A stretch of 63,913 nt of DNA, filler included, from Neolecta irregularis DAH-3 (GCA_001929475.1; 26 parts of 26 records of this genome joined end to end with filler, not necessarily neighbours in it), one strand, 5' to 3'; shown: positions 1 to 63,913, numbered from the whole stretch's first letter. Notes: generated from the letters alone by a model not told the origin. Translations and numbers: made by a program.

Positions 1-335
1 ATCTTTTCTTTTTGTTGTTATTCTTTTCTCTTTATTATTTTGTGTATATTTTTCCTTGGATTCTTGTCCTTTTTGGTATTGATTTTATTGGATAGGTGAT
101 AGTGTATGATGATTTTAACTTTATCCTTCTTTGCTGAATATCTTTGTGGTATCCTCTTGAAATGCTTGTTTGATGTGTATTGTTGTATATGCTTGTATTC
201 TTGTGGGGTGCTTTCAAATTAAGGTATTTGTTGAGATAATTGTTATAGCTCTAGTGCCTTGCTGATCTTGTTGCTTGTTGTATATTGAATTTTGAATGTT
301 TTCTTTCTTTTGAGATATTTTGTTGATGTTTTCTG

Positions 336-2520: not shown

Positions 2521-2576
2521 CAACAACAACAGGATCGGAATAGTGCTCCTGCTGATCCTGAGGTCTGCTTGCAGGA

Positions 2577-4036: not shown

Positions 4037-4135
4037 TAGCAAAGTTGAGTCACTTAGGCTAGGTATTTCAAAAGTTCAGTCACTTGGGCTAGTATATAAA
4101 CCTGGTCTTATTCGAACTGGAGCTTAACACTTGCA
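4037..4135 (+). mobile_element. LTR fragment, family A (3' end)
   Basis: Shares AAGTTCAGTCACT..GGCTAG..TAAACCTGGTCTTATTCGAACT.GAGCTT.AACACTT.CA with 22976-23120 and, inverted, with 21477-21647. Confidence 0.75.
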
Positions 4136-4539
4136 CTGTGGGTTGAATGACTTGCTCAGCTCGCAAGATTTGTCGCGGCGTTGTATGTGCAACATGCATC
4201 CACAGAAATGGCCAGATAGAATCATTTTATATTAGCAATTTTGGATATTTAGTGAATTCGGGATTTTACCTATATAAAAACGAACACTCCGGCGGGTGGA
4301 CACTTGATTTCACGGGAACACGCATTGGAATGGGGGGGAATTCCAGACCGCATGTTTAACGCGTGGTGAAATCCCGCGGGTTATTTATACAAAACAGATC
4401 CATTTCAATTTTACCCAAATCCTTCAAGATAAAATAACAGCCAATCGTCCATGATCATTTTTTCTATGTAAATTATCTTACAACTAAGAACATCATCAAC
4501 AGAAAATAAAATCATAGCACGAAAAGAAACATCAACAAC

Positions 4540-4640
4540 CGACACGAAACAAAACGATGTAAGGAAACAAAACGATGTAAAGGAAACAAACGATGTAAAG
4601 TAAACAAACGATGTAAAGGAAACAAACGATGTAAAGGAAA
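4540..4640. repeat. ~18-bp minisatellite (AAACAAACGATGTAAAGG)
   Basis: About 5 near-identical tandem copies downstream of the PDE gene. Confidence 0.9.
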
Positions 4641-4982
4641 TTGAAAACAAAACCCAACACATTGACTGACAAAAGACTGAAACACCGATTCGAACGACTC
4701 AGAATACAAAAAGTACAACAGGAATAGTAAAGAAATAGACAGATAGATAGATGAAGTGCGACCCTTGATCCTAGAAAGGAACACGTACGTACGTACATGT
4801 GGAGTAGAGGAGGAGGAGGGGAAAGGGGGATATCAGTACAAATTCCGGACCGTATTACCTTAATTCCAAACCCAAACCACAAAAAAACCCAAAAGACCCC
4901 GATAACAGAGAAACCCACAAAAGAGAAAGAAAAGAAATGGCAAGATGGTGATGGAGAACGGTTGGTGCGCGTTGGTGGGGGA

Positions 4983-13700: not shown

Positions 13701-14422
13701 GGTCGCTTTGTTTAATCGACGATTTGTTAGAGTTCATGGGACCTGAAGCTATAAATTACTCTCAACATTTTGCTTCTCAGCTGATGGTGGCGCTCGAAGA
13801 TAAAGGCATAATATCGATCGTCATGCGTTATTCGACTGACGGAGTAGATCCAGTGATTAGACAGGTTACGGCATACGGGATCGGTGTTGCTGCTCAATTT
13901 GGTGGTGAGGTTTTCTCTGAATTCTGTGCACATGCTTTGCCTCTGCTGTTCCAAATGACTGAAATTCCGGAAGCTCGCGACGATGACAACGTTTATGCGA
14001 CTGAGAATGCATGTGCTGCGATTGCGCGCGTATGTCGCTTTAATTCGAGTAAAATTCCGAATCTATCAAAAGTTATCAAAAGCTGGTTTTCAACTTTGCC
14101 CATTGTGAATGATGAGGAAGAAGCTCCTTTCGCATATATATTCTTGGCCGAACTCATCGAACAGTATTATGTGTTGTGCGATATAGTCCATTAACGGTAC
14201 AGGAATAACCCAGTCATCTCCGGTCACCAGGGTCAGTTGTTCCATTGCATAACCCAAGCACTTGAGGCAAATACAGTACAGGGAAAGAATGCCGAACGAG
14301 CAGTCGGGGCTCTCAAACAATTGATGACAATGTTACCCCCTGCTGAAGCACAAGCTCTCTTTCAACACATACCTCCTGAGCGGCAACAACTTCTTGCTAA
14401 TAAATTCCAGTTGTTCTGTTGA
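10738..14422 (+). CDS. PSE1: Importin beta-3 / karyopherin Kap121 (Pse1/Sal3), ~11 introns
   Basis: HEAT repeats: [98 protein letters not shown]. Includes a GC-AG intron at 13806-13847. Confidence 0.95.
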
Positions 14423-17844: not shown

Positions 17845-18030
17845 CAGGCCTTTTAATAGCCGCCAGCAGCAGGCTGGTATCAACCGGAACAAGTACAAAG
17901 GAAAGGAGAACGGAAACGGAAAACAGCAAAGATATAAACCCGGGAGCGGCAGAAGGCTGCACATCAGTTTACCAGCCTCCCCGGAAGTAGCGATACAAGA
18001 AACAAAAGAGAAGAAAATAGGGAACGCCAG
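17845..18030 (-). repeat. Dispersed repeat family B
   Basis: Reverse-complement homology to 41735-41890 and 33255-33365 (CTACTTCCGGGGAGGCTGGTAAACTG..TGTGC, TTTGTAC, GATACCAG..TGCTGCTGGCGGCTATTAAAAG). Confidence 0.8.
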
Positions 18031-18388
18031 TATCTTTCTAGGCCTGCCAGAATGGTGTAGAGTGACGAAGGGAGGGGGAGGAAGGTTGGGTGGTTTCTCG
18101 CGGAAAAGACGAATATATTTGTTGATCATGTTGACCGTGCCACAGGCTTAGCCCGGCCCATTAAAAGCTCGTGGGCTTAGCACTCAACTCTTTCCGGCCT
18201 ATCTCAGTCGATGTAGATGTGTTTCACATCATTTGTGGCTTTTATTTCCGAGACATTACGGAAAAGCCAGAAGCAACTATCTTGCGTCATCTATACAAGG
18301 GCTTGATCCTGGAAAAAGGTTTTACACAACTCTTCACTCGATAGGCTTATACCGCACAAATCACCTTGCAGTCCATTTACCCTATATC

Positions 18389-19684
18389 ATGTTTAAGATC
18401 TTGTGGTCGATCGTGCTTCATACGAATCTCATTTGCGCCGCCTCATACCTCGGTCATTTCACAAAGGTCGAAATTAATTTGGATAATCCTTTGGTTCGCG
18501 CCCTTGACAAATCCTTTGTACAAGAGAAGATAGAGATATGTGCAGAGAAATGCTTCTTGGAAAAGTATTTCTGTAATTCATTCGTCCTCGTCTTTACTGC
18601 GAACCAAGTCATCCGATGTGTAACATCTGAGTACACGGATTGTTATCCGCATGTTAGAACTAGTCTTCTAATGATAGCACGCGCCAAGTAAGCACCTGTG
18701 ACATATGGAAATTGATAATATAGTTTCAAGGAACCACGAAAAGTTGACTTGCAAGATGAGTTTTCCCGCAATATAAAATCCAGTACAGAGTGGATCAAGG
18801 ACGTTAAAATGGGATATCCAGAAGGCGTACAGGGAAAAGACTGGGAATCCTTTTTGCTTGGCTGCTGGGAATCTGCGGTTAAAGGAAAACCAGTAACTGT
18901 AGTCGATATTATTGAGGAAAATGGTCTTTTGTCAGCTACCCGTGATTCAGGAGAGCGAGATGCTAAACGACGCAAACTCTCTGGCGATGAAGAAATCAGC
19001 GTTGAACGCACAGTCTCAAGACATTCGATCACCGAAGAAATCGGTGTTGGCCTCAAATCATGGCCTGAATCTTCAGAATTCTCAGACATAATTGCGCTGG
19101 CTTTTCTCGATATATTCAGCCACAACATTAATGGAGACTACACTACTGTTTTCGATCCAATAAAAAAGTCTTTGTTTATCCATGGAGAAGGCAATTACCT
19201 TTTTATCGTTTCATATGGCAACGGGGATTACGTTATCATAAGTGACCGGTTGAATGCTGTACGACCACCAAGCATTTATGTAGTGGGTCCCTATCAGAAA
19301 ATCCAGTCCGTATCTGCCTTTAAAATGTTTTTAGGAGCTATGAATCTTCTAGGCCACCAACAGACCTCTCGTCGTCCTGATGAATTTCCAATAGGTGCAT
19401 ACCCTGGTGATAATACGGGATCAGCATTAGTTGTTATATTATTTGCAAGAGCCGTCCTTCTGCCGACTTCGAACTCATACTACTACACCGATATATACAA
19501 TCGCTCAGAGCCTGGTATTCTGAAATGTCTTATCGACATGGTGCCATTTGTGCTCTCGAAAGTATATGACAAGAAGATTAGATCCAAGACAACTCAGTCT
19601 CGATTATGGAAAAGCAGTGTGGAAAACCATTTTGAAAAAAGTATGCTTGATATTATTACAGTTCCCAAAAGCGATTCTGGGTAA
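18389..19684 (+). CDS. Orphan secreted protein (~420 aa): signal peptide, Cys-rich PAN-like module, basic NLS-like motif
   Basis: MFKILWSIVLHTNLICAA start. 36-nt intron 18688-18723 (GTAAGC..TAG) joins the two ORFs in frame. CAEKC..CNSF..C module, ERDAKRRKLS motif. Paralog at 21945-22875. Confidence 0.8.
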
Positions 19685-19855
19685 TAGTGTGTGGCACCGC
19701 TGACGGGATATTGACTGCCACATCAAAATTCAACTCAAAGTCGTCAACCCACTCANNNNNNNNNNNNNNNNNNNNNNNNNNNNNNNNNNNNNNNNNNNNT
19801 TAATTAATTAANNNNNNNNNNNNNNNNNNNNNNNNNNNNNNNNNNNNNNNNNNNN

Positions 19856-20258
19856 GCAAATGTTGCCACCGAAACTGCAGGTACGTTATGAAGGACCATT
19901 CAAGATCTCAAGAAAAATATCGGATCTTAATTACGAATTGGAGTTACCACCTTCATCACTCATCCACCCTGTTGTTCACATCAGTTGGCTGAAACGAAAA
20001 ATTGAAATGGCAGAATTAGTTAAGCAAGAACTGCCTGTCCCAGGACCATCAAAAATCTATAGTGATGGGTCTGGGGAGTATGAATTAGAAGCCATCCTCG
20101 ACCAGAAAAGAGTTGGGAATGGCTATAAGTACCTTGTCCGATGGAAAGGATATGGTCCTGAGGACGATTCGTGGGTTCGGAAGTCAGAGTTGAGCAAAAC
20201 TGCTTGGAAATTACCAAGTGATTGGAACTCAGCTCATGTGTCAAGGGGGGGACTGTAA
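19856..20258 (+). mobile_element. Chromovirus pol C-terminus (GPF motif + chromodomain)
   Basis: KLQVRYEGPFKI, IHPVVHISWLK, EYELEAILDQKR..YLVRWKGYGPEDDSW. Polypurine tract 20243-20252. Confidence 0.92.
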
Positions 20259-20509
20259 GGAGTGCACGCTGGTGGTTAGTATAAACACCAGATGCGGTCT
20301 AGTGGTGGAAGGTCCCGGAAGATACTGGAACCTTCCAGTATATTCTGTAGCCACTAATTAGTGGCATTATTATACTATAAGTAGATAGGCTGATGACGGC
20401 AGTACTCTTGTCTTCAACCAAGAGTACTGACGAGTCAGGTACGTAGCAATACAGGTCTTCAACCAAGAGTACTGACGTGTCAGCCCTAACTGATACATGG
20501 TATCTTACA
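20254..20509 (+). mobile_element. 3' LTR (256 bp, TGTAAG...CTTACA)
   Basis: Directly follows the PPT. Same length as, and highly similar to, 57340-57595. Confidence 0.92.
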
Positions 20510-20707
20510 ACTGGGGGATCAAGTTACCCTAGGACTGGGATTACGACACTGCCTTGCATTGGTCTTGGGAGCAATCCTTTGAGACTGCTGCTAGGTTAAA
20601 GTGGGGGAAATAGAACCGTGACGATCAGCGAGCACAGAAGCTCCACATATTGTCACTAATTAGCTTCTATAGAAAGGAGCTGGTTACAGCTCAGGCCATT
20701 CAACACA

Positions 20708-21330
20708 CTAAAACGGGAGGTTATGGATAGTTATTAGTTGAGCAAGTACTTCATGAAATGCTTTCTTATTAATAGCAGATTTAAGATAACGCTCCTGCTC
20801 AAAATCACGTCCTTCCTGTGATTGTGATTGCCGACCAAATATAAGATTCAAAGTATTCTTCTTGGCCTGTTCAACAGGTGTTAAAGCTTCACTTTGGACC
20901 TTTGTATTGTGGATATTAAGCATATGCGATCGAGCTCGACTTAGCGCTGCACATCTGTGGCCACATCTCACACAATACCAAAACTTATGCCCATGTTCGT
21001 CTCGTTGCAATTCCTGATTCTTGGCAGGGCGTGCATAGGCCCATATCACTATTGTGGTTGTTTTGCGGAGTTTCGTACTTGGTGAGAGATCAGACATATC
21101 TCTTTTCTCCCAGTTGGATCTAGATGTAGTAGATTGTGACTCTGCCAGCTCAGAATTTTGGTCAAAAAACTCTGAGTCAGAGGACTGATCAATAGGAATA
21201 GGTGATGTTGAATTTGAAGCCATTTTTGAATAGTAGTTGTAAACAGCTAAGATCCGCGATGGTTACACGAACGCGATCAGGTTACACAAGGCACACTAGC
21301 GGATCTTGTATGACACTCCAGGCTGTGTTA
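20708..21330 (-). mobile_element. hAT-like DNA transposon 5' remnant (BED finger transposase N-terminus)
   Basis: IWAYARP..FWYCVRC..RARSHMLNIH and F.EVL.QLITIHNLPF are typical of fungal hAT transposases. ORF truncated; putative left end near 21330. Confidence 0.7.
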
Positions 21331-21476
21331 CTTAATAAGCAACAATGAACAAGTCTATTATCTCAGAAGATACAAANNNNNNNNNNNNNNNNNNNNNNNN
21401 NNNNNNNNNNNNNNNNNNNNTTAATTAATTAANNNNNNNNNNNNNNNNNNNNNNNNNNNNNNNNNNNNNNNNNNNN

Positions 21477-21647
21477 GTTGAAGCTCGAGTTCGAATAAGA
21501 CCAGGTTTATTATACTAGCCTGAGTGACTGAACTCGTCTAGGTAATGAACGCCTATCTACTTTATATAATACAAATTAAATTGCCGCAGTATTATTGCAA
21601 GCCTTCCTTACGTAATGGTAAGCTCTACCTGAGGGTATATGCTTACA
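21477..21647 (-). mobile_element. LTR, family A (nearly complete)
   Basis: Begins TGTAAGC at 21647 on the minus strand; matches 22976-23120. Confidence 0.8.
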
Positions 21648-21944
21648 GTGAGTGTCTGCGATGGGTATGGGCGACAAGGGCGGACGAGTGCGGACGCGGG
21701 CGACGAGCAGGAGACAGAAATGACTATTGATGGATTCAAAATCACAAAGTGAACATGGTGGTCTATCAAGTCAAAATGATCGTTATGGGAAATAGATCGG
21801 CTGCTTGCCCTGTAGATTGATTCAATAGTCTTACAACTAGTAGTCTTACCAGTAATAATCTGCAAACAATAAAGTCTCCTAGTGAAGAAAGAAACGCACT
21901 CTGAACATACAAAATATACCAAAATAAACCTTATCTAGGTCCCA

Positions 21945-22875
21945 CTACCTATTACCAGAATCGCTTCTTGTAATAATACCAATATCTGTAAAATGGGTTT
22001 CCAGGCTGTTTTTCCATAATCGAGACTGAGCTATATTGGATCCAATGTTTTTCCCATATACTTTAGAGAGCACAAATAACACCATGTCGGTAAGACATTT
22101 CTGGGATAGAGTGGATGGGCGTGTACCCCGGTAGTTATCCCTCAGAAGAATATGTGTCGCCTCGAATATAACGGTCAACGATGGTTGACTATGATTAAGT
22201 TCTCCAACTACTGCTGAATAAATAAAGGTCTGTCTGTGGCCTAGAAGATTCATAGCTTCTTCAAATATTTTCCTGGCAGATTCGACCTGGATGTCCTGAT
22301 TGTAGCCTATTTTCCATATGACTGGTTGAAGAATGGAACTGTACTCTATCATAACGTAATTTTCCTTGCCATATGAAACAATGAGAAGGTACATGTCATT
22401 TCCATGGATAAACAAAGACTTCTTTATTGGATCAAAAACGGTAGTGAAGGGTGGAACAATGTTTTTGCTGAATATCTCGAGAAAAGCGAGCACAATTATG
22501 TCTGAGAATTCCGAAGATTTTGGCCATGATTTGAGGGCAAGGTCGATTTCTTCGGTGATGGAATGGCCACGGATTTTGCTGCTAACGCTGATTTTTTCAT
22601 TGACCAAATCTTCAGAGATTTTGAGTCGTTTGGCCTTTCGCTCTCCTGTATCATTGTCCTCAATAAAATCACCTGTATCCTTATCCTTAACAATATCGAC
22701 TACAGTTGCTGGTTTGCCATTCATCGCAGATTTCCAGCAGCCATCCAATAAAAGATCCCAGAATGGATTGAGTACCCAGCGTAAATATCCCTTTTCAACG
22801 TTATCAATCCACGTTTGACTGGGTTCCATATTGTGAGAAAACTCGTCAACAACGTTAAATTTTCGTGGTTCCTTG
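21945..22875 (-). CDS. Paralog of the 18389 secreted protein (5' truncated)
   Basis: Shared blocks KEPRK, GCW.SA..GKP.TVVDI, HSITEEI...LKSWP.SSEFSDII.LAFL, TTVFDPIKKSLFIHG, AMNLLGH.QT, QSRLWK.S.E.HF. NLS-like ERKAKRLK. Confidence 0.85.
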
Positions 22876-23514: not shown

Positions 23515-24921
23515 TCATACATCTTTCAATAATCGACTGGAAGCAACCTTTGCAATATCCCAACGGCGCTTCAAATGGGTAGTTAAGCAACCGCGAATAA
23601 CTTCACTCAGGTCATAACCTATGGCTTGCCAGAGGCTATCCTCAAGGACAAAAGCCTCATCACCCCGTCGTCCAAGAAGGAATTCAAGCCTCCATCGAGA
23701 ATGAAATGCCCCAACTTCTTCGCGATAGAAGCCGGACATCTCATATAATACCACACCCAAAGCCCATATATCCGCCTTCTTTAAGTCCTCTTTTCGACCT
23801 CTCCTGTAGACTTGATATGACCACATTTCTGGAGCGATCATCTGTTTAGTCCCATACTCGTACTCAGTAGGAGGAGACCAACGGGTACCTTTAGTAGAGA
23901 GACCGAAATCAATGATGACTGGACGGAAGCATCGACCATCACATTGACCAAAATGAGAAACAACAGCATAATGAGTATAGGAATCCTTATAAAGGAGGAC
24001 ATTCTCTGCTTTGATATCACCATGGCCTACATTGTTCATGTGTATGTGCTTGATACCAGCCGCGATTCCGCGAACTAAATGCTTTAAGGTTTCAGGACGA
24101 AGGGCGTGACCGGCTTTATGAGGTTCATACTTTTCTTTAAGATATTGATGGAGGTCGCTATAAGCTAGGGGAGTTTCGATGAATGTGTATGGTCCAGCGT
24201 CAATCAGATTAAGGGCACTCTGAACGTTTTGATGATGAGATAGAAGCTTTGTGATCTCGACTTCAGCCTTTGCTGCACTCATGGCGTGACTGTCAGTCTT
24301 ACGAATGAACTTGATAGCTCGATATCCTGATTTGATAACAAAGCCCCCACCGCCATGAGCAATAATTTTTTCAAGTCGACAGCTGTGAAGAAAGATGCTT
24401 GAACGAATTGCTGCAGCAAAGTTGACTTGAAGGGCATGTCTTTTGGCGTCTTTGTAGTTTCGAAATTTATCATCACTGAGAATGAGCTTGCGTACATTGT
24501 CTTCTATATTGTCCAGCTCGATAAACTGTACGGTCGATATAAGTGATATGGGACGATTCTGTCAGAGTAAGCTCTGAGGTCAATTTAAGGCTGGCACCTT
24601 TTCCACTACATCAGCGGCAATCATTTTGAGAAATAGGGGATCCGGCAAGGCCATCAAGTCGGGCCTAGAAAGATCGGCATGTTCGATATCTATACCCGAG
24701 TTTTGCCACCGAATTCCCTGTTGTCGAGTACTCGAACCGACCAAGGTTCTGTCTTGCCCATAGATAGTATTTCGGCCGCTGTATACTTGCTTTTTCACAT
24801 TGATACGGAGTTTTTTGTTCATCAAACTAATGATATCCCCAATCTCATCCTTGATTTTTCGAACGACCTTGTTACGAAATTGGGTCACACGCGTCTTGCG
24901 AGGGTTTTCCCATACAGTCAT
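23515..24921 (-). CDS. Divergent Ser/Thr protein kinase
   Basis: Intron 24559-24597 (GTGCCA..CTGACAG) joins the N-terminal ORF to the kinase frame. AHGGGGFV loop, AIK, alphaC Glu, HGDIKAEN, DFG, APE, DIWALG. Confidence 0.85.
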
Positions 24922-27995: not shown

Positions 27996-28662
27996 CCCGG
28001 CAGGCTCGACCGCCAAGCCGAAGAGCACAAGGCATGCATTACCGCCCGCCGCGGCTGCCTGGCTGACTGCTCGAGGTGCTCTCGTCGCCCGCCCGCCTTC
28101 AAGCTGCCCATCTACGCCCGCTTAAAATACTAATTTTTGGAAAGTATATTTTATAAAATGGCGCCTGAAATTCCAATGTTTTAAAAAGCCACATTTATGT
28201 GGAGCGAACCAAACGTGCGCCTGAAANNNNNNNNNNNNNNNNNNNNNNNNNNNNNNNNNNNNNNNNNNNNTTAATTAATTAANNNNNNNNNNNNNNNNNN
28301 NNNNNNNNNNNNNNNNNNNNNNNNNNCCCCCCATAATCCTACCCCCCCAAAAAGTTACCCCCCCATTAATTCGGGTAATATGAAAAACTCTCCAAGTCCA
28401 ACAACCTACTACTATAAAAACCTACCCCCCCATAATCCTACCCCCCCAAAAAGTTACCCCCCCCAAATTCCGGGGAAAATAATAGAAACATCCTCAAGAC
28501 TAAAAACAAAGCTACCAAAGAAGTGGAATAGCAATACCAGAACAAATAAATACAGCTACCCCTATAAAAACCAAAGTAGATACAACAAACACAATATAAA
28601 GATAAACATGACTGAGGGAAAACCAAAGAAGAGATACCTCAAAAAGCATACCAAAGATAAAA

Positions 28663-30117
28663 ATGTCCTTTACATTAGCGACACTGAACTGTAGGGGATT
28701 ATCAAACCCAACCAAGTATGCAAATCTAATGAGATATGCAACTGAAAGAAACATAGACATACTCATAATGCAAGAAACCCACTTATGTGAGGAAAAAGCA
28801 AATAGAATTGAAGGAAGATTCCCAAGGATCACACTCATTCATAACTGCCCAAATAGCAATTCTACAGGCATATCTGTGGCAAGTCTGAACCCAAAAAACA
28901 AAATACAAAAACTAAATGACCTACAGTGGGATATAGAAGGTAGGACAATAAAATTCAAACTCTACCCAGAAGGTGGGGGAGAATACACAATCGTGGGAAT
29001 ACATATCCCAAATGGAGACCAGCTAATATGCCAATTCTTAGAAAAATTAGAAATATCAGAAAGGGAAAACCAAACAAATGAAAACAAAACAGATATAATC
29101 TGTGGTGACTGGAACTGTGTAGAAAGAAGTTGGGATAGACTACCTAACAGAGTAGACTCACTACCAATTAGAGAAGCAATTAGCAAATTAAAAATCTCCC
29201 TAGAAATCGAGGATGAATGGGTAAAGCTAGAGGAAGACCAAGAGTTTACCTTTAAAAACTATAGAAACTGTCATAGTAGATTGGATAGAATATACACACA
29301 TAAACAACTAGAAAATTGCCTAGTAAACTGGCAAACAAGGAAGGTACCAATAAAAACTGACCACAAGATGGTATCAGTAATGATAAACAAAGATCACCAA
29401 ATACAAAGAGGCAGAGGACCCTGGAAATTAAACCCAGAATCCCTTGAAGACAAGGAGTTCATAACCCAATTGGAGAATGAACTAGAAAAAGTACAAGAAG
29501 AAAACCCAATAGAAAGTCTGAAAAAAAGAAAGGAAATAATAATTACAACAGCCAAGAAATGGACTGTTAAACAAGCAAAGAAGAGAAAAACGAAAGAAAA
29601 AGCACTTAAAAGGAAGATCTTGGTAATAAACCAAGAAATCCAGAATAACACAGCAAACCCAAGCAGAATAAGAACTAGGGATGAAGCTGAAAAAGTACTG
29701 GGTCAATGGATAAATAAAAATTTTGACCTAGAAAAGACAATCTCAATGGGAAGATTTAAAGAAAAGTCATCAAGATACTTCTACCAAGCAGGTAAATTAA
29801 AAACCAAAAAACAACCAATAAAAGGGTTGAGAAATGAACAAGATGTATACTGTACAAGGGAAGCATCAAAGAGAAAAGTTGCAGAAAACTACTATGAAAA
29901 GTTAATGAGCAAGGGAATAACAATGCCCCTGGCACAGAGTGAAATGGTGTCTCATATCAAAGTATGTATAACAGAGGAATCACAAAACAAAATAACTGAA
30001 GAAATAACAGAAGTGGAACTAGAAGACCACCTGGCCAAATGCAAAAATGACAGGGCAGCTGGTATTGATGGAATACCTTATGAGATATACAAAAACTCAG
30101 ACCTCAAAGATCTGATA
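28663..30117 (+). mobile_element. Non-LTR retrotransposon ORF2 (APE endonuclease + start of RT), L1/Tx1-like
   Basis: TLNCRGL, MQETH, GDWN, SRLDRIY, TDH, GRGPWKLN, AAGIDGIPYE.YK. Intact to contig end; only about 6 CpG in the 1.8-kb contig. Confidence 0.92.
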
Positions 30118-30217: not shown

Positions 30218-31331
30218 AAGTTCCGATAGGGGTGCTGAGATTGTTGCGAAGTTCGGAATGAAGCATTGATAAAACCCTAGCATTCCCAAGAATGCTTAAG
30301 TTTCTTTGACATTTGTTGGCTCTTTCCATTCCGAAATCTCTGCAATCTTGGCATCTTGAGCTTTAATACCCTTCTGGGATATCTTGAATCCTACCCACTC
30401 AATAACTTTCTTCTTGAATTCACATTTCTTCAATTTCGCGAAGAATTTCTTCTCACGAAGTCATTCAAGTATTGCCTAGACATCCTTAATGTGCTGACTC
30501 TGTGATTTGGAGAATATCTGTACATCATCCATGAAGACATTACAGCATTGTTCTAACCCCACTAATGCCCTATTCATCATCTGCATAAATATGGCTGGCT
30601 CGTTTGCCAAGCCAAATGGTAACACTTTAAATTCAAAATATCCCATCTTCGTCTGAAATGTCAAGAGGGGTATGGTGTCCAGGTGTAGTCATTGCTGAAA
30701 ATATCCAGATGCCTGGTCGAGTTTAGAGAACCAACCTGCATTACAGATCCGGTCTAACAGTTCATCTTTCCTTGGTAGAGCTGTGTTATTTTTAAGAGTA
30801 TTGCTATTAATATCGCGATAGTCAATACACATGTGTAATTCGCCTGATTTCTTCTTGACGAATAGGCACAAGGAACAGTAAGGAGATGTACTATGCTGGA
30901 TGAATCCCTTTTTTAGTAGACTTTGTAGCTCTTCTCTCATTGAGTTTTCTTCTGCAATTGAGAGTCGAGGGATTGGTCTGTTTCAGGGTAATCTAGCTGG
31001 GTTGAGCAGGGAGATTTTATGGTCTTCCTCCCTCTTTGGAGGGAAGGGGAAGTTTCCGTTAAAGACGTCATTGTATTCCGTTAACAGTGTTCTCATTCCA
31101 CTTAAAAGTTGCATTTGTGATTCTGGTGGCTGTATTTTTTCAGCCACCGCCAGAAAGAGTTTATCCGATTCGATTATTTCTGCCAGGTTGCAAGTCATGA
31201 CTTCATTACGCGCGGAATGGGTAATCAGATCATGGCCTGCAATCTTGCAAGAGTTTTCGCAATAATGTAAGCATGCCACCAGGGCATGCTTCACTGATAG
31301 GACTAGAGTAACTTAGAACCAGTGTATAACA
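30218..31331 (-). mobile_element. Degenerate Ty3/gypsy RT
   Basis: LFVKKKSGELHMCIDYR, FSKLD, KVLPFGLAN, FMDD, broken by several stops and a frameshift. Related to the intact RT at 61429. Confidence 0.9.
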
Positions 31332-34170: not shown

Positions 34171-34329
34171 GACTGAATAATTCATATACATAGTTAATAG
34201 TTAAGAAGAAATAGTAGAAGAGAAAAGGNNNNNNNNNNNNNNNNNNNNNNNNNNNNNNNNNNNNNNNNNNNNTTAATTAATTAANNNNNNNNNNNNNNNN
34301 NNNNNNNNNNNNNNNNNNNNNNNNNNNNA

Positions 34330-36397
34330 CTATCATCCATCCACTTGTCAACTTAAAGTCCCATAAGAGAGTTTTTACCTTCAACAAGACAAAGACTCTC
34401 ACAATTAACCTTGTATTCTGGTTCCTCCCTTCTGTGCCCATTGGCTGCTATTGTCTGTTGAGTTCTTGCCTGAATCAGATTATCTTGAGTGATCTCATTA
34501 TATATTTCTATTCTGGCAAGCCATGTGTCTGCCGCCAGGATCATGTCATCTGTCGATGAGAAAGGTGGGAATGAACATACTCTGCATCCATATAGTAATT
34601 CAAATGGCGAGAATCCCGTTGACATGGAAACCATGGTATTCATTGAGTACTCAATTTCCAATAAGTAGTTTGCCCAATCTGTCTGTCGGCTATTTACATG
34701 ATGGCGAAGTAGTTGAATTGCTGTTTTATTAGATCTCTCCAATACCCTGTCTGTTTCCAGATGAAAGGCAGTCGACATCTTTAATTGAATGCCGATTCTC
34801 TTATATATCTGTTTCCAAAATCTTCTTGTAAAACGTGTATCCCTGTCTGAGATAATCGATCGAGGCAGACCATATAATCGTTACCAATGATGATATACCA
34901 AATCCGCTACATTATATGCAGATGCCATCATATTCGTGGGGTGAATCTGTACAACATTGGTGAATAGATCAGTAATAACCAGTAAAGCATTATAACCATT
35001 TGATTTCGGCAACGGTTCCACAAAGTCCATTCCAATAGATTCCAAATGTGAACCCGGAACTGGTAACGAGTGCAAAAATCCTGCTGGCAGAAGAGTGGTA
35101 GCTTTCAGTCTTTGGCATTCATCGCACGATGATACATACTTTTCTGTATCTTTAGATAACCCTGGCCAATAATATTCAGAACATATTGCCTTGTATGTCT
35201 TATCTAACCCAAAATGACATGAGCAATCATGATGGGCATAAAGCAGTCGTTTGCGGATCCCTTTGTCGCGCGGGATACATAAGCGTTGACCAATGTAAAA
35301 AAAACAGTTCTTATTCTCATAGGCCGGATATCGTTAGGGATGGAAAACTACGTCAGCTATAAATGGATCTGTCGTGTAAGCCATCTTGATCTTGTGTCCT
35401 TCACTTTAGGATAGATGAACGGTAGTGGTGATCTGTAATAATTCACCCTCCTGTGGTTGACTTTCATATCATGAGAGAGCGTCAGCCGCCACGTTGAGGC
35501 GACCCTCCAAATATTGTACGTCGAAATCAAAATGACTGAGAAAATCTAACCATCGTAGCTGGCGATAAGACAGATGCATTTGAGAATGCCAGTGCTTCAG
35601 TGGTTAGTGGACCGTTAGGACCACGAACTTGAACCTGATGAGGTGGTGAGCCCACTTCTTTAATGTGAAGATAATGGCCAGCATTTCTCGCTCATGTGTT
35701 GGATAATTAGCTTCTGCCGGTGTATATTAGAGGCTTTCAAATGATGCAGGTTTGGCAGTATGCCATGTTGATCCCTATGCTAATATACACCCCACTCCTT
35801 TTTTACTTGCGTCTGTAATCACCCATATTGGATCTTCGAGTTGTTCGTTTATTGGTGTGAGCTATGCAGTGGTTGTCGTAAGTTACTTTATCTCTTTAAA
35901 TGAGTTTTCTTCTGTCAGAGTCCAACGAAAAGGTGTTCCCTTCCTTGTGAGGCGTGTTAACGGAGCTGCATAGTTTGCTAATCTGGGCAGGAACTTCGAA
36001 ATATAGTTTATGAATTCCATAAAACATTGGATCTCTTTGATCAAGTGTGGCCATTTACAGTTTTTTATTTTATCTACCTTATCCAGGTCTACACTTATAC
36101 CTTGATTCAAGATTACATGTCCTAAGAATTGGAGTGCATCTGCAAATGGAACTGACTTTTTACGAGATGCTAATATACCATTCGTCCTCAAGAGATCCAA
36201 TATCGTTGTGAGGTTCTTCCTGTGCTCTTCGATAGAGTTCGACCATATTAATATATTATCGAGATATACAGCACACATTATAGCGATGTATTCCCTTAAT
36301 AGATGATTCATGAATCGTTGAAAGGTTGCAGGGGCATTACAAACCCCCTGCGGCATCACTGTCCATTCGAATAAACCAAATGGTGTCTTAATGGCTG
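34330..36397 (-). mobile_element. Degenerate Ty3/gypsy pol (RT-RNaseH-integrase)
   Basis: MPQGVCNAPATFQRFMN, YLDN, TDASKKGVG, NYPTHEREMLAII, H....HFG, IGMDFVEPLP, IISDRD, MSTAFH, GFSPFELLYG. Many stops and frameshifts. Confidence 0.92.
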
Positions 36398-45361: not shown

Positions 45362-46192
45362 ATGTCTCCAAGAACGTGGAACACCTATTTACCTCTTTAC
45401 AGACATCCATTCAGCATATCCACGCGTCGAACTTCGCGTAGATTGCGACGTCGCATGCTTCTGTTATCTATACTCTTGTGTATCCCGCTTTTCTGCTTGC
45501 CTCTGTATATCGTTTATAAACCTCCGCAGATCGTCATACGTGCTCTCGCTAGAAGATATCCTGATGTCCTGTGGTTCGTCGATGTAGTGGCCGCAGAAAA
45601 GGTCATCGCCTTGACAATTGACGATGCCCCAAGTCGGTTTACTCCTGAAATCCTCAGACTATTAAGAGATCATGATTCGCATGCAACATTCTTCTGTATT
45701 GGTAGTCAAGTCACGCCAAACTCGCTGCAGGCAATTATTTCGCAAGGACATGAATTGGGAAATCATGCAATGCGCGATGAAGCCTCAGTTGATTTACCAC
45801 CCGACAAACTTAGAGTCCAAATAGAACAGGTCGATGAGATGATTGACGAAGCGTATTCGGAACTCGGTATTGAGAGGCAATCCAGGTTCTTCCGACCTGG
45901 TTTTGGATTCTTTTCAAATGTAATGATCGAAATGGTGCAGTCGATGGGATATCAGACTGTTCTCGGCAATGTTTACCCTCATGATGCGCAGATACCTTAT
46001 CCTAAAATCAATGCACGGCATATTTTGAGCATGGTTCAACCAGGTTCGATTATAATCGTTCACGACCGACGAGAATATACTACTCGTATGCTTCAAGTAG
46101 TTCTACCAGCATTGAAAAGACGAGGCTATGAGATAGTAACAATGTCACATCTTCTATCGCTAGGCAAGTCCACAAAGCGCCGAGAAAATTAG
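45362..46192 (+). CDS. CE4 polysaccharide (chitin/NodB-like) deacetylase, intronless, N-terminal TM anchor
   Basis: ALTIDDAP, ATFF, GHELGNH, FFRPGFG, GSIIIVHD, GYEIVTMS. Confidence 0.9.
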   Translation: MSPRTWNTYLPLYRHPFSISTRRTSRRLRRRMLLLSILLCIPLFCLPLYIVYKPPQIVIRALARRYPDVLWFVDVVAAEKVIALTIDDAPSRFTPEILRLLRDHDSHATFFCIGSQVTPNSLQAIISQGHELGNHAMRDEASVDLPPDKLRVQIEQVDEMIDEAYSELGIERQSRFFRPGFGFFSNVMIEMVQSMGYQTVLGNVYPHDAQIPYPKINARHILSMVQPGSIIIVHDRREYTTRMLQVVLPALKRRGYEIVTMSHLLSLGKSTKRREN

Positions 46193-47656: not shown

Positions 47657-50600
47657 ATGGGTTCTGGTAGTATTAATCAAGAAAAAATTCAAGAGTACCC
47701 AATAACGCAGCTGTCCCCCGAAGAACGCGATATAATTTGGCAGCAGTCGAATACTCAAGTACACAATGTCTCCTATTTTTCATTATATCGATATTCAACA
47801 CCATTAGATAAGGCTCTGATGGTTCTTGGACTGGTCATGGCAGTTGTTTGTATCTCTCCGAATGAGCTGAAGGATGTTGACTGTTGCGAATAGCTGGATC
47901 TGCAATTCCCCTCCTCACTGTTGTGCTTGGTCAACTTACTAATTCGTTTGCAGCTGTATGAACATTCTTCTGCTGTTTCATCGACTGATCAAAGTTCACC
48001 AGTGGAAACGGATCTATCAGCCGCGATCAGTTCCAGAAAGACGTTGATCAACATACTTTGTATTTCGTCTATATTGTATTCTCCTTTGCTTGACTGCTGT
48101 ACTCACGTCAAGGCCATCCCTATTTTCTGTTCTACCTTTATTGCCACGTTCTCGTGGCTATATACTGGAGAGCGAATAACTAGACAAATACGGGAGCGCT
48201 ATTTGCGGGCAGTTTTACGACAAAACATCGCATACTTTGATAAGCTCGGTGCTGGAGCAGTCACTACTCGTATTACAAGGTAGTTCAATTCTTACAACGA
48301 CTCAACTAAAATTTAGGGATACTGCTCTTATCCAGGACGGTATTTCGGAGAAGGTCACTGTTGTCGTCGCAGCTATTGCAAAGTTCATCAGTGCTTTCGT
48401 TATTGCTTTTATCAAGAGCTGGAAACTCACATTAGTCATCTCCTTTATCATACCACTCCTCGCCGGCACACAGGGCTTGATCGCCAAATTGCTCAGTAAA
48501 TACTCCAAAGAATCACTAAATGTTTATTCCGTCGGAGGGACTTTAGCCGAGGAAGTTTTTAGCAGTATTCGTAGCGTTCAGGCTTTTGGAACTCAAGATA
48601 AGCTTTCGGCAATATACTATGGTCATCTTACACTTGCATACAAAGTAGGTAAAAAGAAGGCTGTTGTTGTTGGGTTTATGTTTGCTGCTCTTTGGTTTAT
48701 TTTGTTCTCAGCATATGTAAGTATTTCTTACCTTTCTCGATTACTTATAGGAGCAGGCACTTGCATTTTGGGAAGGAGCTCGAATGCTTCTTCGAGGAGA
48801 ACTTGAACCTGGTACCATTATCAACGTCTTCCTTGCCGTTGCCCTTGGGTCCTTTTCACTAGGCCAAGTTGGGTCGAATGTTACAGTATTTACATCTGCT
48901 TCAGGAGCGGGGAAGAAGATTTTTGAAACTATTGACCGGAAAACTACCATCGATTCAATGGCAGATGAAGGTTTAAAGTTTTCCGAAGTCCGAGGAGAAA
49001 TAGAACTTAAGAATGCCAGTTTCATATATCCAAGTCGACCCGAAGTCGTTGTCCTGGATAACCTCAGCATTAGCATCCCAGCTGGACAGACAGTTGCCCT
49101 GGTTGGAGCTAGTGGCAGTGGGAAGAGCACCATCATCGGCCTAGTTGAACGCTTTTACGATCCTTATCGAGGAAAGGTTCTATTCGATGGCCATGATATC
49201 AAAGACTTGAATCTCAAATGGCTTCGTCAACAAATATCACTCGTCTCGCAAGAACCCATTCTCTTTGCTACCACGGTTTTCGAGAATGTCTGCTACGGCT
49301 TAACAGGAACTTTATATGATGATGCAAACGAGGAAAAGAAACGAGAGCTGGTTTATGATGCCTGCAAGATGTCCAACGCTGATGGATTTATTCGAAGTCT
49401 CCCTGAAGGCTACGAAACCCAAGTTGGAGAACGAGGAATATTATTATCAGGGGGTCAAAAACAACGAATTGCAATTGCTCGAGCCATTGTTTCCGATCCA
49501 AAAATCTTACTTCTCGATGAAGCCACCAGTGCACTAGATGCAAGATCTGAAGGAGTTGTACAAGATGCTCTCGATCGGGCAGCAAAATTTCGCACAACTA
49601 TAGTCATCGCACATCGGCTCTCAACGATTAAAAATGTAGATTGCATCATGGTAATGTCAGGCGGACGAATTGTTGAACAAGGAACTCATAATGAGCTCCT
49701 TGTGAGAAAAGGAGCATACTGGAAACTTGTGGAAGCTCAACGAATCAACACTGAACAAGCACAAGATGATGAAATTGATGAAGTGAGCGAAATCAATCCA
49801 AAAGTTGAAGTTGCAGCCGGGCTCAAACGAAAATATACTGAAAGTGGCGCAACTTGTGAGGATTCCCAATCAGAGCTCAATAAGAAGAAATACTCTGGAA
49901 TCAGTCTCGTTTATCGGATTTTGAGTTTCAATAAGCCAGAAAGGTTTCTTTTTGCAATCGGTTTCGCCGCTGCCGCTGTATGCGGAACTATCACCATTGC
50001 ACAAGCTCTAGTACTCTCCCATTTCGTAAAGGTTTTGTCTTCGGTCGGTTCTCCAGCACATCTCCAATCTCGAGCGAGTTTTCTTGCCTCCATCTGGTTG
50101 ATGATAGCTATTGTTTCCTTCCTCAGCTATTTTCTCGTTGGTTTCATTTTCGAGTATTGCGCCGAAAAGATGATTCGTCGAGTTCGTGACCAGAGTTTCA
50201 GGAAGCTTATTTATTCCGACATCGAATTTTTTGATCGTGAAGAAAATGTTAGTGGTGCTCTACTTGCTGCCCTTGCTACAGATACACCCAATTTAAGAGG
50301 GTTAAGCGGAAGCGTCCTTCGTATGTATTTTTGTTACCTACCTGGTATATTAATTTTCTAATAGATACTATGGTTTCTATCACTCTCCAAATTTTTGGTG
50401 GTCTTATTTTGTCATTAATTGTTGCATGGAAGCTCGCTCTGGCTGTAATGTGTACGATCCCTGTTCTGTTAACCACAGAATACCTTCGATTTGCTTTACT
50501 GCAACGGTTTCAGGTCTCGATCCAAGAAGTTTATCAGAAATCCGCGCAATTTGCTTGTGAAGCAACTGCGAACATTCGAACTGTCCAAAGTCTCACCCGA

Positions 50601-56390: not shown

Positions 56391-57339
56391 AGTTTGTTAC
56401 ACATTGAGATTCTCAATGCGTAAGGGTTAGGATTTAGGGTCAAGGTTGACCATTTTGGTATTAGGGCTATGAATAGCTTCACATGGGCCCATCCGCAACA
56501 CTGATTTCTGCTCACAGTAGCTTCATCTCCATGGGCGGTGGGCTTGACCCTCATAAAAAGTGCACATGCTTTGGCCCATCCACAACCCTGTTGATTGCAA
56601 GATGTGCTTAGGATCATATTTGGATTGCAAGCCTTGAGCTGTGGTCAATGTCTTTTATCTATTTCGTTGTTGAATTCAGACATCTAAACAAAGGAAAAAC
56701 ATCAACATTGATTGCAAGAGGGAGGGAGGAGAAACGATGTGAGGTGGTCAGAGGTAACATAATACTAACGTGTAGAAGATAGGGAAACCCCAATAAAAAT
56801 ATGTTTTGTTTTACTATAGTACTATCAAGTCTACCAAATCCATTCAAGCTAGTCTCTTGGTGACTGGAGGGGATTCTATTTTGGTAATTAATAGTCTAAT
56901 TAATCCTACCAATGTCATGTTAAGCCTATGGCACACCCAATGTCCACCCCGCCTTGACCCCCTGGAGTGGATGGATTGTTGTTCACCCCAGGGTGGTATT
57001 CAGAATAAGACCCAATCCTGTGAGGGGGCGTAAAAAACCAGAAGCGGCTCAAATGTAGACCCAAACCGGACGCAGAAAACCATAAGCGGCTCAAATGTAN
57101 NNNNNNNNNNNNNNNNNNNNNNNNNNNNNNNNNNNNNNNNNNNTTAATTAATTAANNNNNNNNNNNNNNNNNNNNNNNNNNNNNNNNNNNNNNNNNNNNA
57201 TAGAATATTTACAGTGAAGTTAAAGCTCTTGTATTCAAACCAGTGATTAACTATCTAAATTGATGGAGAAGATCAAAGAGTGACTTAATCTATTCAGACA
57301 CTCAATCAAAAACCTGATTCCTTAGTAGAATTATCAGAG

Positions 57340-57595
57340 TGTAAGGAGCGCACGCTGGTGGTTAGTATGAACACCAGATGCAGTCTAGTGGCGGAAGGTC
57401 CCGGAAGATACCTGAACCTTCCAGTATATTCTGTAGCTGCTAATTAGCAGCATTATTGTACTATAAGTAGATAGGCTAACTATGGCAGTACTCTTGTCTT
57501 CAACCAAGAGTACTGACGAGTCAGGTACGTAGTAATATATGTCTTCAACCAAGAGTACTGACGAGTTAGCCTTATCTGATACATAGTATCTCACA
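57340..57595 (+). mobile_element. 5' LTR (256 bp) of the chromovirus family seen at 20254
   Basis: TGTAAG...TCACA, followed by a PBS and gag. Confidence 0.92.
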
Positions 57596-57597
57596 AT

Positions 57598-57610
57598 TGG
57601 AGGTCCTACC
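57598..57610 (+). promoter_or_regulatory. Primer-binding site TGGAGGTCCTACC (tRNA-Gln-like)
   Basis: Starts 2 nt after the LTR; reverse complement GGTAGGACCT-CCA matches my recollection of the fungal tRNA-Gln 3' end. Confidence 0.7.
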
Positions 57611-57686
57611 ATGTGGATGCTCATAAATCAGAACTCGCTGAATACCCTAAAGAACTAAAATAGATCTTTACACATTCACGCGAATC

Positions 57687-58783
57687 ATGGAGCAGATATC
57701 TACATCCATCAGCATAGCCGTAGCCTCAGCCATCGACCAGGCAATCGTACGAACTCAGGAACACCAGGCTGCAAATACCGCAGCCTTGGAAAATCACTTC
57801 ACGGCTACAGTGGCACAGGCAGTCACTGAAGCTGCAAAAACAATGGCTTTGACAGTCCAAAGGGCTGCCCATGTGCCGCAATTCCCAAAGTTCTCTGGTA
57901 AATAGGACGTTAATGACTGGTGATTTGCAGTAGTAGAAATCTCAACAGGAAACCAGTTTGAAATAGCAGAATTCAAGAGATTGATATTCGAATGTTTGAA
58001 TGGATATGTGAAGGAATGGTAGCGGGCAAACAAAGATGCTCTGGATACCGCCAGTTCTTCTGAAAGAATTATTGAGTTGTTTCATGGGGAATTCATCCCC
58101 TGAGGTTACTTATTCAAGCAGCGGGTAACATTCGATAACTTAAAAGTCAGAAATTCGATCACTGGATTCATAACCACCTTTCAGAAATTAAAACTCCGGG
58201 TTGATTATTCTGAACCAGTCCTAGTCTATGACTTTATTCAAGCATTCACGAGCATCCCTGCCTGTCAAGATAAGTTAATTGACAGAGCACCTGAAACTAT
58301 TTCGGCAGCAATCACAATTGCTCGTGAATAAGAATTAAAGAAATCAATGGTCAAGGGCACTAATGGTGATAGGGGTGGGTATGCCCCCATGGAAATTGAT
58401 GCGGTTTGAAAGAAAGGATACTGCAACTGGTGCAAGTCCAGTAAGGGGCACACGAAGAAGGACTGCTTCTTCTACCCCGGAAATAAACCCCTACGCAGTT
58501 TTGCCTTTAAGAAGAAAGGAGTCAGACAACGACGAAAAGTTAATGCAGTTGAGTCAGGAAAAGAGCAGGAGGGAATGGATGGAGAAGCCTACCCCCTTTA
58601 GTAAATGTGTCTGTCAGTGGTTATATAGATAAATCAAACACTGTTGAAAAAACTTCTCCGCCACTTGAAATTGTGAATGTAGCCCTATTTGGCAAAGGTC
58701 TCATCAAATTCCCTTGTACCATAAGTCAAAAGAAGGTGCAAGTGGAAGCCTTGGCACTAAAAGATGATGGCGCTACCCATAAT
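57687..58783 (+). mobile_element. Degenerate gag-protease
   Basis: PKFSG, APMEID, Zn knuckle CNWCKSSKGHTKKDC, protease DDGATHN. Multiple TGA/TAG/TAA stops. Confidence 0.88.
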
Positions 58784-61277: not shown

Positions 61278-61428
61278 TGTTGAAGGCTGTGAAGTTGGCT
61301 TCAGTGTAGGCAATGAATAATAAATCAANNNNNNNNNNNNNNNNNNNNNNNNNNNNNNNNNNNNNNNNNNNNTTAATTAATTAANNNNNNNNNNNNNNNN
61401 NNNNNNNNNNNNNNNNNNNNNNNNNNNN

Positions 61429-62740
61429 TTCTACAAAACTCAAAATATGATATTATTCTTGGCAAATCATGGCACTCTAAGCAACAACCAGTGGTTGATT
61501 ATAACAATAATTCATTCAGAATTAGAAACCAAACTTTCATTGGCATTCATTATCCTAAGAAAATACCTGAAATTTCTGTACTAGAATTAGAAGAAGCTCT
61601 AGCAAATGATGCAACAGCTTTTGCAGTTTTCATTGAACCTGCAAACTCAAAGGAAAATTCTCATCAAACTGATCCTGATCTTAGAAAATTACTAGAAGAA
61701 TATAAGGATATATTCAAGTCTAAATTTGGATTACCAGATCAAAGACTATATGACCATAAGATTGAACTTATTGACAAGTCAATCCAACCAAAAAATAGAC
61801 CAATCTTCCCACTTTCAATTGCAGAAACTGAATTTCTCAGAAAAGAGATTGCAGACTTACTAGAAAGGGGATTCATAGAACCAAGTACATCACCATATGG
61901 AGCAGCAGTTCTTTTTGTCAAAAAGAAAACTGGAGAGCTAAGAATGTGCATTGATTATAGACAACTTAATCAAAATACAGTTAAAATTGCTGCTGCACTC
62001 CCCAGGGTTGATGAACTTCTTACAAGGATTGGAAAATCAAGAATCTTTTCAAAATTGGATCTAGCATCAGGATATCACCAACAACTACTAAACCCAGAAA
62101 CTAAACATTTAACAGCTTTCAAGACTAAATTTGGCCACTTTCAATTCAAGGTTCTACCATTTGGATTGGCAAATGCCCCAGCAACATTCCAAGAAATGAT
62201 GTCAGAGGTATTAAGAAATTTAGATCATATATCAGGAGTCTTTATGGATGACATTATTATCTTCTCAGAATCAAAAAAGTCACATATGGAACATTTGAGA
62301 ATAGTTTTCAATAGACTCAAGCAGAACAAACTTTATATCAAAGCAAATAAATGTGAATTCTTGAAAAATGAAATTGAATGGTTAGGACATAAAATATCTG
62401 GCAAAGGTATACAAGTTGTTGAATCTAAAATCAAAGCTATATCAGATTGGCCAACCCCATCAAGAGCAAAGGATATCCAAAGCTTTCTGGGATTAGCTGG
62501 CTACTATATGAACTTTGTTAACAATTATGCAACAATTGCTGGTCCACTTACAGATTTACTAAAAAAGGACTGTGAATGGAAATGGACTCAAAAAGAAATC
62601 TTATCTTTTGAAACTCTCAAAAAAGCATTAATCTCAACACCAGTCTTGGTTAGACATAACCCAAGCAGAAAAACTATCTTAACATGTGATGCATCAGGAA
62701 TAGGAATTGGAGCAGTACTCTCACAGCAACTTGAAAATGG
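61429..62740 (+). mobile_element. Intact Ty3/gypsy pol segment (protease end-RT-RNaseH start)
   Basis: YDIILG, SPYGAAVLFVKKK.GELRMCIDYR, FSKLDL.SGYHQ, PFGLANAPATFQ, FMDDIIIFS, SFLGLAGYY, TCDAS.IGIGAVL. No stops and no CpG seen. Confidence 0.95.
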
Positions 62741-63913
62741 NNNNNNNNNNNNNNNNNNNNNNNNNNNNNNNNNNNNNNNNNNNNTTAATTAATTAANNNN
62801 NNNNNNNNNNNNNNNNNNNNNNNNNNNNNNNNNNNNNNNNGACATTATAATAAGTCTGAGACATATGCATAAGTCCTTCATATGAGAGAGATGACATGTC
62901 ATCCCTGACATGCAAGCATTGAGAGGGAAAGTATTGAAACTGAATTAAATTGAGTATCTGGATCCATATACATATTTATATCCATATCCATATTCATCCA
63001 CTTCAATGGTAAAGTCTTGACCTTTTTACTCTACTACAGCTGTGCATCAAGCAGCAGGAACAACAGAAATACCAGCTCTATACACAATACTGAACATCTG
63101 TGCTATGTAATCCAGTAGTTGTGACTTGTCTTAACAAGTAACAAGGAGTTTTCTGTTAAATTAACTAACCATTTGTGCTCACTTCCTAGGTGTTAGTCTT
63201 TTATCTTTACTAGGTAACTAACTGAGAAAATTAGTTCTTCACCTTATGCGAGGAAGGGTAAGGAATCAAGCTCAGTGTTTGAATGTGTTCAGACACTGTG
63301 GTATGATAGGGGAAGGAGGGTATATAAATTATGTATGATATATAGAGAAAGAGGAGGGATTAATGGAGTTACCAGAACTGCTGGACCTATACTAATAAGC
63401 AATGGCAAAATACTCAGTAGGGAGTGTTGACAATAAGGGAAGTACTTTGGAAGGATTCTGAGTATTTCCCAGAATCACTCCAACCTTAAGAAAGATTCTA
63501 AGTTCAATAAACAGAAGCAATAGGACAATAACTCTGGATACAATAACAATTTATATGGACAATAATACAGTGAAAAGATCAGTCTCAAGGAGCTATATCT
63601 GGACGTTGTAGGCTAGATAACTCAGATGCGATACAACGACTAACCGAGTTATGCGAAGTTACCGAAACTTACTAAACTCAGTATAATAGGGACAGTCCCA
63701 ATAAACTTCAGATAAACTTGATACGACGGTCGATTCCTGATACTAATGCCACAAGTAAGATTTAGGTCCTTCTTTTCTTAACTAAGAAAAACTGACAAAA
63801 GTTGAACAAGAAGTCGATTCTGACTGTGTGGCAGTGATTCATTATATACTGTTAGATCCTCATCAGAAGATAATTCCTGGGACTCTGAAGACTTCAGCCT
63901 CAGTACCACCAGT

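Follow-up and report, generated by a model that had tools for sequence, protein, structure and literature searches.

An open Ty3/gypsy pol fragment wholly without CpG among CpG-poor retroelement contigs of a putative ascomycete

We describe a 1312-nt retroelement contig, 61429-62740, which is open to translation over its whole length and contains not a single CpG. The absence of CpG is non-random, it is accompanied by an excess of TpG and CpA, it carries no RIP signature, and it contrasts with the composition of host genes. The catalytic residues are conserved, and the divergence of two subfamilies is biased towards synonymous changes. Additionally, CpG purging is not peculiar to this contig, as at least two unrelated retroelement families are purged as well. 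On balance, it appears probable, though far from assured, that retroelement lineages were purged of CpG by a CpG-directed methylation/deamination pressure while they remained under functional selection.

The window, i.e., the whole stretch of 63,913 nt that was analysed, consists of 26 small contigs of 1.1-9.2 kb joined end to end by artificial linkers. The linker unit is 100 nt long and occurs in 25 copies, and its central 12-mer is what we take to be the usual six-frame stop spacer for contig joining. An internal 10-N gap is present in 2 of the 26 contigs, and an Rfam scan of the entire window gave 0 matches. The CpG-free element is exactly one contig, with the following features:

61329-61428: artificial linker, not biology (44 N, TTAATTAATTAA, 44 N)
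61429-62740, plus strand: Ty3/gypsy pol fragment, the whole 1312-nt contig, bounded by linkers, with 0 CpG
61431-62738, plus strand: ORF P0001, 436 codons, open at both contig ends, with 18 AGR and 0 CGN arginine codons and 0 NCG codons
61431-61478, plus strand: retropepsin C-terminal tail with the KYDIILGKSW motif, which aligns with the D.ILG..WL consensus of homologues
61917-62396, plus strand: reverse transcriptase, Pfam RVT_1 (E = 2e-37, residues 163-322, full profile 1-205)
62241-62252, plus strand: catalytic FMDD, a motif read in the sequence
62583-62735, plus strand: first half of an RNase H-like domain (Pfam RT_RNaseH_2), the rest of which is cut off by the contig end
62741-62840: artificial linker, the same 100-nt unit as at 61329-61428

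The relative of this element at 30218-31331 is another contig. As the contigs are unlinked and artificially joined, position, adjacency or distance in the window carries no inference. The preliminary description had placed the element in an unrelated region, a phrase without genomic meaning, since both stretches are separate small contigs between linkers. The practical lesson holds regardless of the origin of the DNA: positional inference from a chain of unlinked contigs is invalid.

In P0001, a protease tail is followed by RT and then by the first part of RNase H (RT_RNaseH_2, E = 1.1e-13, residues 385-435, profile positions 1-51 of 100), and the contig stops before any integrase. This order, the combination of RVT_1 and RT_RNaseH_2, and FMDD as a YxDD-class catalytic motif are shared with Ty3/gypsy (Metaviridae-type) elements. 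So is the likeness to hundreds of homologues at 40-50% identity, some of which are labelled Ty3/gypsy at their source. The KYDIILGKSW motif is similar to KYDLLLGR in the gypsy gag-protease at 339-2420. Judged by these features, 61429-62740 represents part of a Ty3/gypsy LTR retrotransposon, which the assembly of an ascomycete genome has placed in a repeat contig of its own. It differs from known elements of this type in that the contig has no LTRs, gag or integrase and in that its closest relative is no more than 51% identical; no protein above that value was found among 5.8 billion sequences, and the nearest protein clusters come from mixed eukaryotic phyla. The contig had been described as an intact gypsy pol. 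The frame is indeed open throughout, but it covers only about one third of pol, without integrase or LTR.

The host is taken to be an ascomycete from sequence comparisons. Named homologues of the chitin deacetylase encoded in the window come from ascomycetes (identity of at most 58%, one-member cluster), and the matches of an importin fragment reach no more than 45% identity.

The contig has a GC content of 0.335 and contains 0 CpG, against 36.8 expected from its base composition (Poisson P ~1e-16). Thus, the earlier claim that 1312 nt of stop-free RT-RNase H sequence hold no CG is correct, the open frame being 436 codons long. GpC is normal (o/e 1.12), and both TpG (1.30) and CpA (1.31) are in excess. 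In 2000 synonymous-codon shuffles, with protein and codon usage held constant, the number of CpG averaged 15.7 with a minimum of 7, and zero was reached in 0 of 2000. Therefore, CpG is avoided even across codon junctions in 61431-62738, where C|G junctions number 0 against 15.6 expected. All 18 arginine codons of the ORF are AGA or AGG, and the absence of NCG codons stands against 63 NCA codons.

As a compositional baseline, and for the decay simulation described below, we used 43 related gypsy pol loci from metagenomes that are 30-51% identical to P0001. Their CpG o/e has a median of 0.71 (range 0.15-1.62), and many of them combine an open frame with an o/e near 1. Since none of the 43 falls below 0.1, the total absence of CpG is extreme for the gypsy superfamily.

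Three further contigs of the window are depleted of CpG in whole or in part:

1-2420, minus strand: different gypsy family, gag-protease, separate contig; 694 codons open; 0 CpG against 79.4 expected
28327-30117, plus strand: LINE-type element with an AP-endonuclease ORF, separate contig; 502 codons open; 6 CpG, o/e 0.10
62841-63913: contig with a composition switch, a purged part followed by an ordinary part

The ORF in 1-2420 has 39 AGR and 0 CGN arginine codons, and that of the LINE has 33 and 0, so that the three purged ORFs together use AGR 90 times and CGN never. Pfam gave weak matches to aspartyl protease families for 1-2420, with DUF4100 below the Pfam cut-off. In the last contig, 62841-63603 (763 nt) holds 1 CpG against 24.5 expected, and 63604-63913 (310 nt) holds 10 against 12.0; the switch near 63604 may be the edge of a purged repeat in ordinary DNA. 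We identified no coding content in 62841-63913, and its purged part is apparently non-coding. When the four CpG-poor stretches are pooled, 7 CpG are observed against 199 expected.

Host genes show a different picture. Five host-gene contigs (importin, ABC transporter, chitin deacetylase, kinase, RPL5/UBC) have a pooled CpG o/e of 0.93. In host-gene exons, which include 12959-14191, 48751-50358, 45455-46189 and 23518-24561, CGN is used for arginine 70 times and AGR 20 times, and CpG at codon junctions is as frequent as expected. Since CGN is preferred over AGR and junction CpG is not reduced, no CpG-depleting pressure acts on host coding DNA.

Many retroelements and RNA viruses avoid CpG. The avoidance might accordingly have been selected elsewhere, through RNA sensing or stability, or be a by-product of an A-rich coding strand, with no DNA methylation at all. 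The coding strands of the purged ORFs are indeed A-rich (0.39-0.46), with a GC3 of 0.23-0.33. A-richness alone nevertheless fails to account for the loss, given the GpC o/e of 1.12 and the 15.7 CpG expected in shuffles with the same codon usage, and none of the 43 related gypsy loci comes close to it. An effect at the level of RNA is hard to reconcile with the purging of two apparently non-coding stretches, part 1-335 of contig 1-2420 and 62841-63603. To our knowledge, no CpG-sensing RNA pathway exists in fungi. We regard explanations of this kind as very improbable.

The window also contains several repeats of less clear nature. A repeated gene family occupies 17845-19755 and 21477-22875, with a DNA identity of 73-79% and ORFs of 321 and 324 aa; Pfam found no match in these ORFs and their CpG content is normal (o/e 0.82-0.90). 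They may stem from the expansion of a gene family or from a so far unclassified mobile element. At 4037-6926, long minus-strand frames are packed with short tandem repeats, and the same 116-nt segment lies on both sides of a 10-N gap, the two occurrences being 96.6% identical; the region has the appearance of a tandem array that was collapsed or wrongly scaffolded. One of its frames carries an HDVGHPG motif, presumably of HD-type phosphodiesterase appearance, and Pfam gave no match for 5778-6026, the only piece of this region that was scanned.

The sequence composition of the purged contigs bears on the mutation process. Canonical RIP is defined by TpA/ApT above 0.89 together with (CpA+TpG)/(ApC+GpT) below 1.03. 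We found 0.67 and 1.82 for 61429-62740 and 0.64 and 1.59 for 1-2420, and classical CpA-type RIP was rejected as the origin of the purged contigs on both indices. A CpG o/e of 0.00 with TpG and CpA in excess, next to host-gene contigs at 0.93, is instead a MIP-like footprint.

Two other gypsy contigs, on the other hand, have retained CpG and lost their reading frames:

30218-31331, minus strand: gypsy RT, other family, separate contig; 26 CpG (o/e 0.55), 6 in-frame stops, 0 frameshifts
34329-36397, minus strand: gypsy RT-RNase H-integrase, third family, separate contig; o/e 0.71, 10 in-frame stops, 0 frameshifts

Both are broken by in-frame stops only, and in 34329-36397 a single frame can be followed, with 8 of the 10 stops being TAA or TAG. 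Some stops in the dead copies take the place of an Arg in the homologues (TGA, as if from CGA), others that of a Gln (TAG or TAA, as if from CAG or CAA). With these presumed ancestral codons, the pattern would fit killing by C-to-T transitions. A further pair of contigs, 19856-21376 and 57200-58783, both with a CpG o/e of 0.52-0.56, shares a 267-nt repeat at 89.9% identity. Its 27 differences include 21 transitions; CpA/TpA context accounts for 12 and CpG context for 4. This spectrum is RIP-like and may be a sign that a CpA-type process is at work in this genome too.

Canonical RIP of the Neurospora type (CpA to TpA) resembles what we see in being a repeat-directed fungal defence that works via C-to-T change, and it would fit the TAG and TAA stops at Gln columns as well as the 12 of 27 differences in the repeat pair. 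The CpG-free contigs, with TpA/ApT of 0.64-0.67 and a substrate index of 1.59-1.82, are not RIPed.

A closer parallel is offered by Tuber melanosporum. Its transposable elements are reported to undergo CpG-targeted methylation with secondary, MIP-like C-to-T change, and a process of this kind has been deduced from CpG signatures in several fungi (Montanini 2014, PMC4165359; Amselem 2015, PMC4352252). The likeness extends to an ascomycete host, an effect on repeats and not on genes, a CpG rather than CpA context and no signal in the RIP indices. The bias reported for Tuber is partial, concerning a share of copies and a higher C>T SNP density, whereas here whole open ORFs of three families have an o/e of 0-0.10.

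The second parallel is the TpCpG RIP-like hypermutation of repeats in Microbotryum and rusts, as reported by Horns 2012 (PMC3318451) and Horns 2017 (PMC5381629). The latter proposes that variants of transposable elements that shed target sites might evade the RIP-like defence. Both the CpG-centred C-to-T change on repeats and the idea of escape through target-site-free variants recall our case. In contrast, the hosts there are basidiomycetes and most sites remain (35 in the ancestral fragment, 1.7 mutated per copy; PMC5381629), while the loss described here is complete and concerns all CpG, not TCG alone. In the open-access literature, we found no completely CpG-free yet open transposable element lineages described in an ascomycete.

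The preliminary description had seen in 30218-31331 a clear relative that contains CpG and is broken by stops, and in the two contigs a natural paired comparison in which the CpG-free lineage persists and the CpG-bearing one is inactivated. The relative is as described: it has 26 CpG and a single minus-strand frame that is interrupted by 6 stops, and the motifs LFVKKK.GEL.MCIDYR, KVLPFGLAN and FMDD are common to both contigs. The pairing itself does not stand. P0001 and 30218-31331 share 47.3% protein identity (165/349) and 55% DNA identity, about the same distance as that from P0001 to its best database matches. Since protein identity is only 47%, the two contigs are, on sequence grounds, different families and not sister subfamilies. 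At the 26 CpG sites of the relative, P0001 has CA at 4 and TG at 3 (27% vs 14% background), which at 55% DNA identity appears too weak to be a usable signal.

The wider contrast is anecdotal. Retroelement ORF contigs in the window are open in 3 of 3 CpG-purged cases and in 1 of 3 CpG-bearing cases (Fisher p = 0.4). The one open CpG-bearing case is the following:

2521-3936, plus strand: probable retroelement gag-protease ORF, separate contig; contig CpG o/e 0.83

The ORF, at 2562-3935, is open over 458 codons and contains 59 CpG and 5 CGA. It aligns collinearly with the gypsy protease region (E = 7e-5), and a zinc knuckle matches as well; a Pfam scan of the ORF gave no match. The preliminary description had set intact, young, CpG-rich copies against its own view. 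This ORF is open and CpG-rich, and with its probable assignment it would be a counter-example to the notion that CpG-bearing elements are dead and, if young, one of the kind named.

An open frame can also outlast decay. CpG to TpG or CpA changes give a stop codon solely from CGA. We simulated saturating decay in 17 intact homologous ORFs, each CpG being mutated at random. The probability that a frame remained open was 0.01-1.0 and exceeded 0.2 in 7 of the 17, at a cost of about 39 missense changes per 436 codons. The open frame alone is therefore weak evidence for selection, and, because frames often outlast simulated CpG decay, it is the missense burden that discriminates.

We aligned 45 sequences, P0001 included, and defined 150 conserved columns at an identity of at least 80%. 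P0001 keeps 38 of the 38 invariant columns. At the conserved columns it matches in 117 of 150 (78%), the lowest value of all, the other 44 sequences reaching 92 +/- 4%. None of its 33 mismatches is of the deamination type (R to C/W/H/Q, A to V/T, S/P to L, T to M, V to I/M, D to N, E to K, G to S/R), and three are R to K. The single candidate change is R350Q, at a column with 80% Arg. Several of the mismatches are common to the relative at 30218-31331. Because many are shared with the window's own relative, we read the 78% as clade distance; some functional decay may have contributed too. When all three purged ORFs are considered (1632 codons in total, all open), the joint chance of such an outcome for decayed, once CpG-normal sequences is 0.0001-0.05.

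Sequencing reads provide a view of further copies. Two runs of one study contain 61429-62740, with 1.00 of sampled words found in X1 and 0.90 in X2, and X2 is labelled as another organism than X1. X1 may be where this DNA came from. No RNA run was listed as containing the stretch, which has no bearing on its expression. In X1, one unbranched read-assembly contig of 4698 nt contains all of 61429-62740 with 0 differences, and a second contig matches the RT core only, at ~89% identity, which makes it a second subfamily. In X2, 58 pieces aligned to 61429-62740, of which 43 are at least 99% alike, 10 are at 95-99% and 5 are below 90%. The depths (576 vs 126 in X1 and ~4600-6100 for exact pieces in X2) come without a single-copy baseline and give no copy number.

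Six differences are listed for the second subfamily. Five are synonymous, one is a Q-to-E change to the consensus residue, and 0 create a CpG. As synonymous changes make up 23% of those possible in that stretch (P = 0.003 for 5 of 6), the differences point to purifying selection between the subfamilies. They have the signature of two already CpG-free lines that would have diverged under such selection, in a small sample from the most conserved part of RT.

These results bear on the possibility that 61429-62740 is a dead copy, i.e., a once CpG-normal element which underwent saturating CpG-specific hypermutation in place and kept its frame by chance. In such decay a stop can arise from CGA alone, and 7 of the 17 simulated ORFs remain open in more than 20% of trials; TpG and CpA are in excess, and R350Q falls at a mostly Arg column; the TGA stops at Arg columns of the relatives also indicate that C-to-T killing occurs here. 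Decay in place would nevertheless be expected to leave about 39 missense changes among the 436 codons, against the 0 of 33 mismatches of decay type. Every conserved Arg that is retained is AGR-coded, and the three independent ORFs would all have had to remain open. It would also predict TG/CA mosaics between copies, against which stand the unbranched contig in X1 and the 43 of 58 nearly identical pieces in X2, as well as the synonymous bias of the subfamily differences. We consider a dead copy quite unlikely. The lack of CpG seems to characterise a lineage that remained functional, with 38 of 38 invariant columns and five of six synonymous differences in favour of this view. In that part, the earlier claim that the CpG-free lineage persists finds support.

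The identical sequence in a run with a different organism label raises the question of whether the CpG-free contigs derive from an organism that was sequenced along with the ascomycete, such as a contaminant, a symbiont or a host with a CpG-poor genome. A contaminant or symbiont common to both runs would be compatible with the label. No contig is linked to any other, the CpG-free ones are AT-richer (GC 0.34-0.36) and have no DNA similarity to the others beyond a distant RT match, and the nearest clusters of P0001 come from mixed eukaryotic phyla, a mixture that is uninformative about origin. Other observations argue against foreign DNA. The CpG o/e of the repeat contigs is graded (0.00, 0.00, 0.10, 0.52-0.56, 0.71, 0.83) and not bimodal, and contig 62841-63913 changes along its length from nearly CpG-free (1 CpG over 763 nt) to CpG-normal (10 over 310 nt). 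The lack of any match above 51% among 5.8 billion sequences means that the source is not a commonly sequenced host or laboratory organism, and the relative within the window (47%) is no more distant than the database matches. Finally, three retroelement families are purged, yet the window holds no CpG-free ordinary gene. A foreign source seems to us fairly unlikely, though less so than decay in place.

The reading we prefer, CpG-directed pressure on lineages under functional selection, would work as follows. The host would methylate cytosine at the CpG of repeated DNA and thereby bring about C-to-T deamination there, in a MIP-like process of the Dnmt1 type as described in Tuber and distinct from CpA-type RIP. 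Functional copies would go on founding new copies, round after round. Each CpG in turn would be replaced by TpG, CpA or a synonymous alternative, with the protein under purifying selection. In the CpG-free end state no CpG would be left to methylate or mutate, which may aid persistence. We infer here the methylation, the host enzymes, the current activity and any benefit of escape. Several findings count against this scheme, among them the differently labelled run with the same sequence and the low match of P0001 at conserved columns (78%). In addition, no contig physically joins a purged element to a host gene, and the 267-nt repeat pair is more CpA-type (12/27) than CpG-type (4/27), so that the dominant repeat mutation process of the host may not be CpG-specific.

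A bolder version holds that two gypsy families and one LINE family of one ascomycete have wholly shed CpG under purifying selection and are hence invisible to a CpG-directed defence, with the CpG-bearing families killed by point mutation as an internal control. We put it forward tentatively, as a possibility that we ourselves doubt.

As a Ty3/gypsy fragment, the element is ordinary, and fungal repeats are already known to lose CpG; it is the footprint that is extreme. If the purged contigs are foreign DNA, or open but dead copies, the finding amounts to an ordinary compositional footprint. If the purged elements are resident and active, they would show how an arms race against a dinucleotide-specific defence ends, namely with target-free elements. 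This would be an extreme, realised case of escape through shed target sites, which has so far only been proposed (PMC5381629). The proposed evasion route would then be testable by a census and a methylome in one organism.
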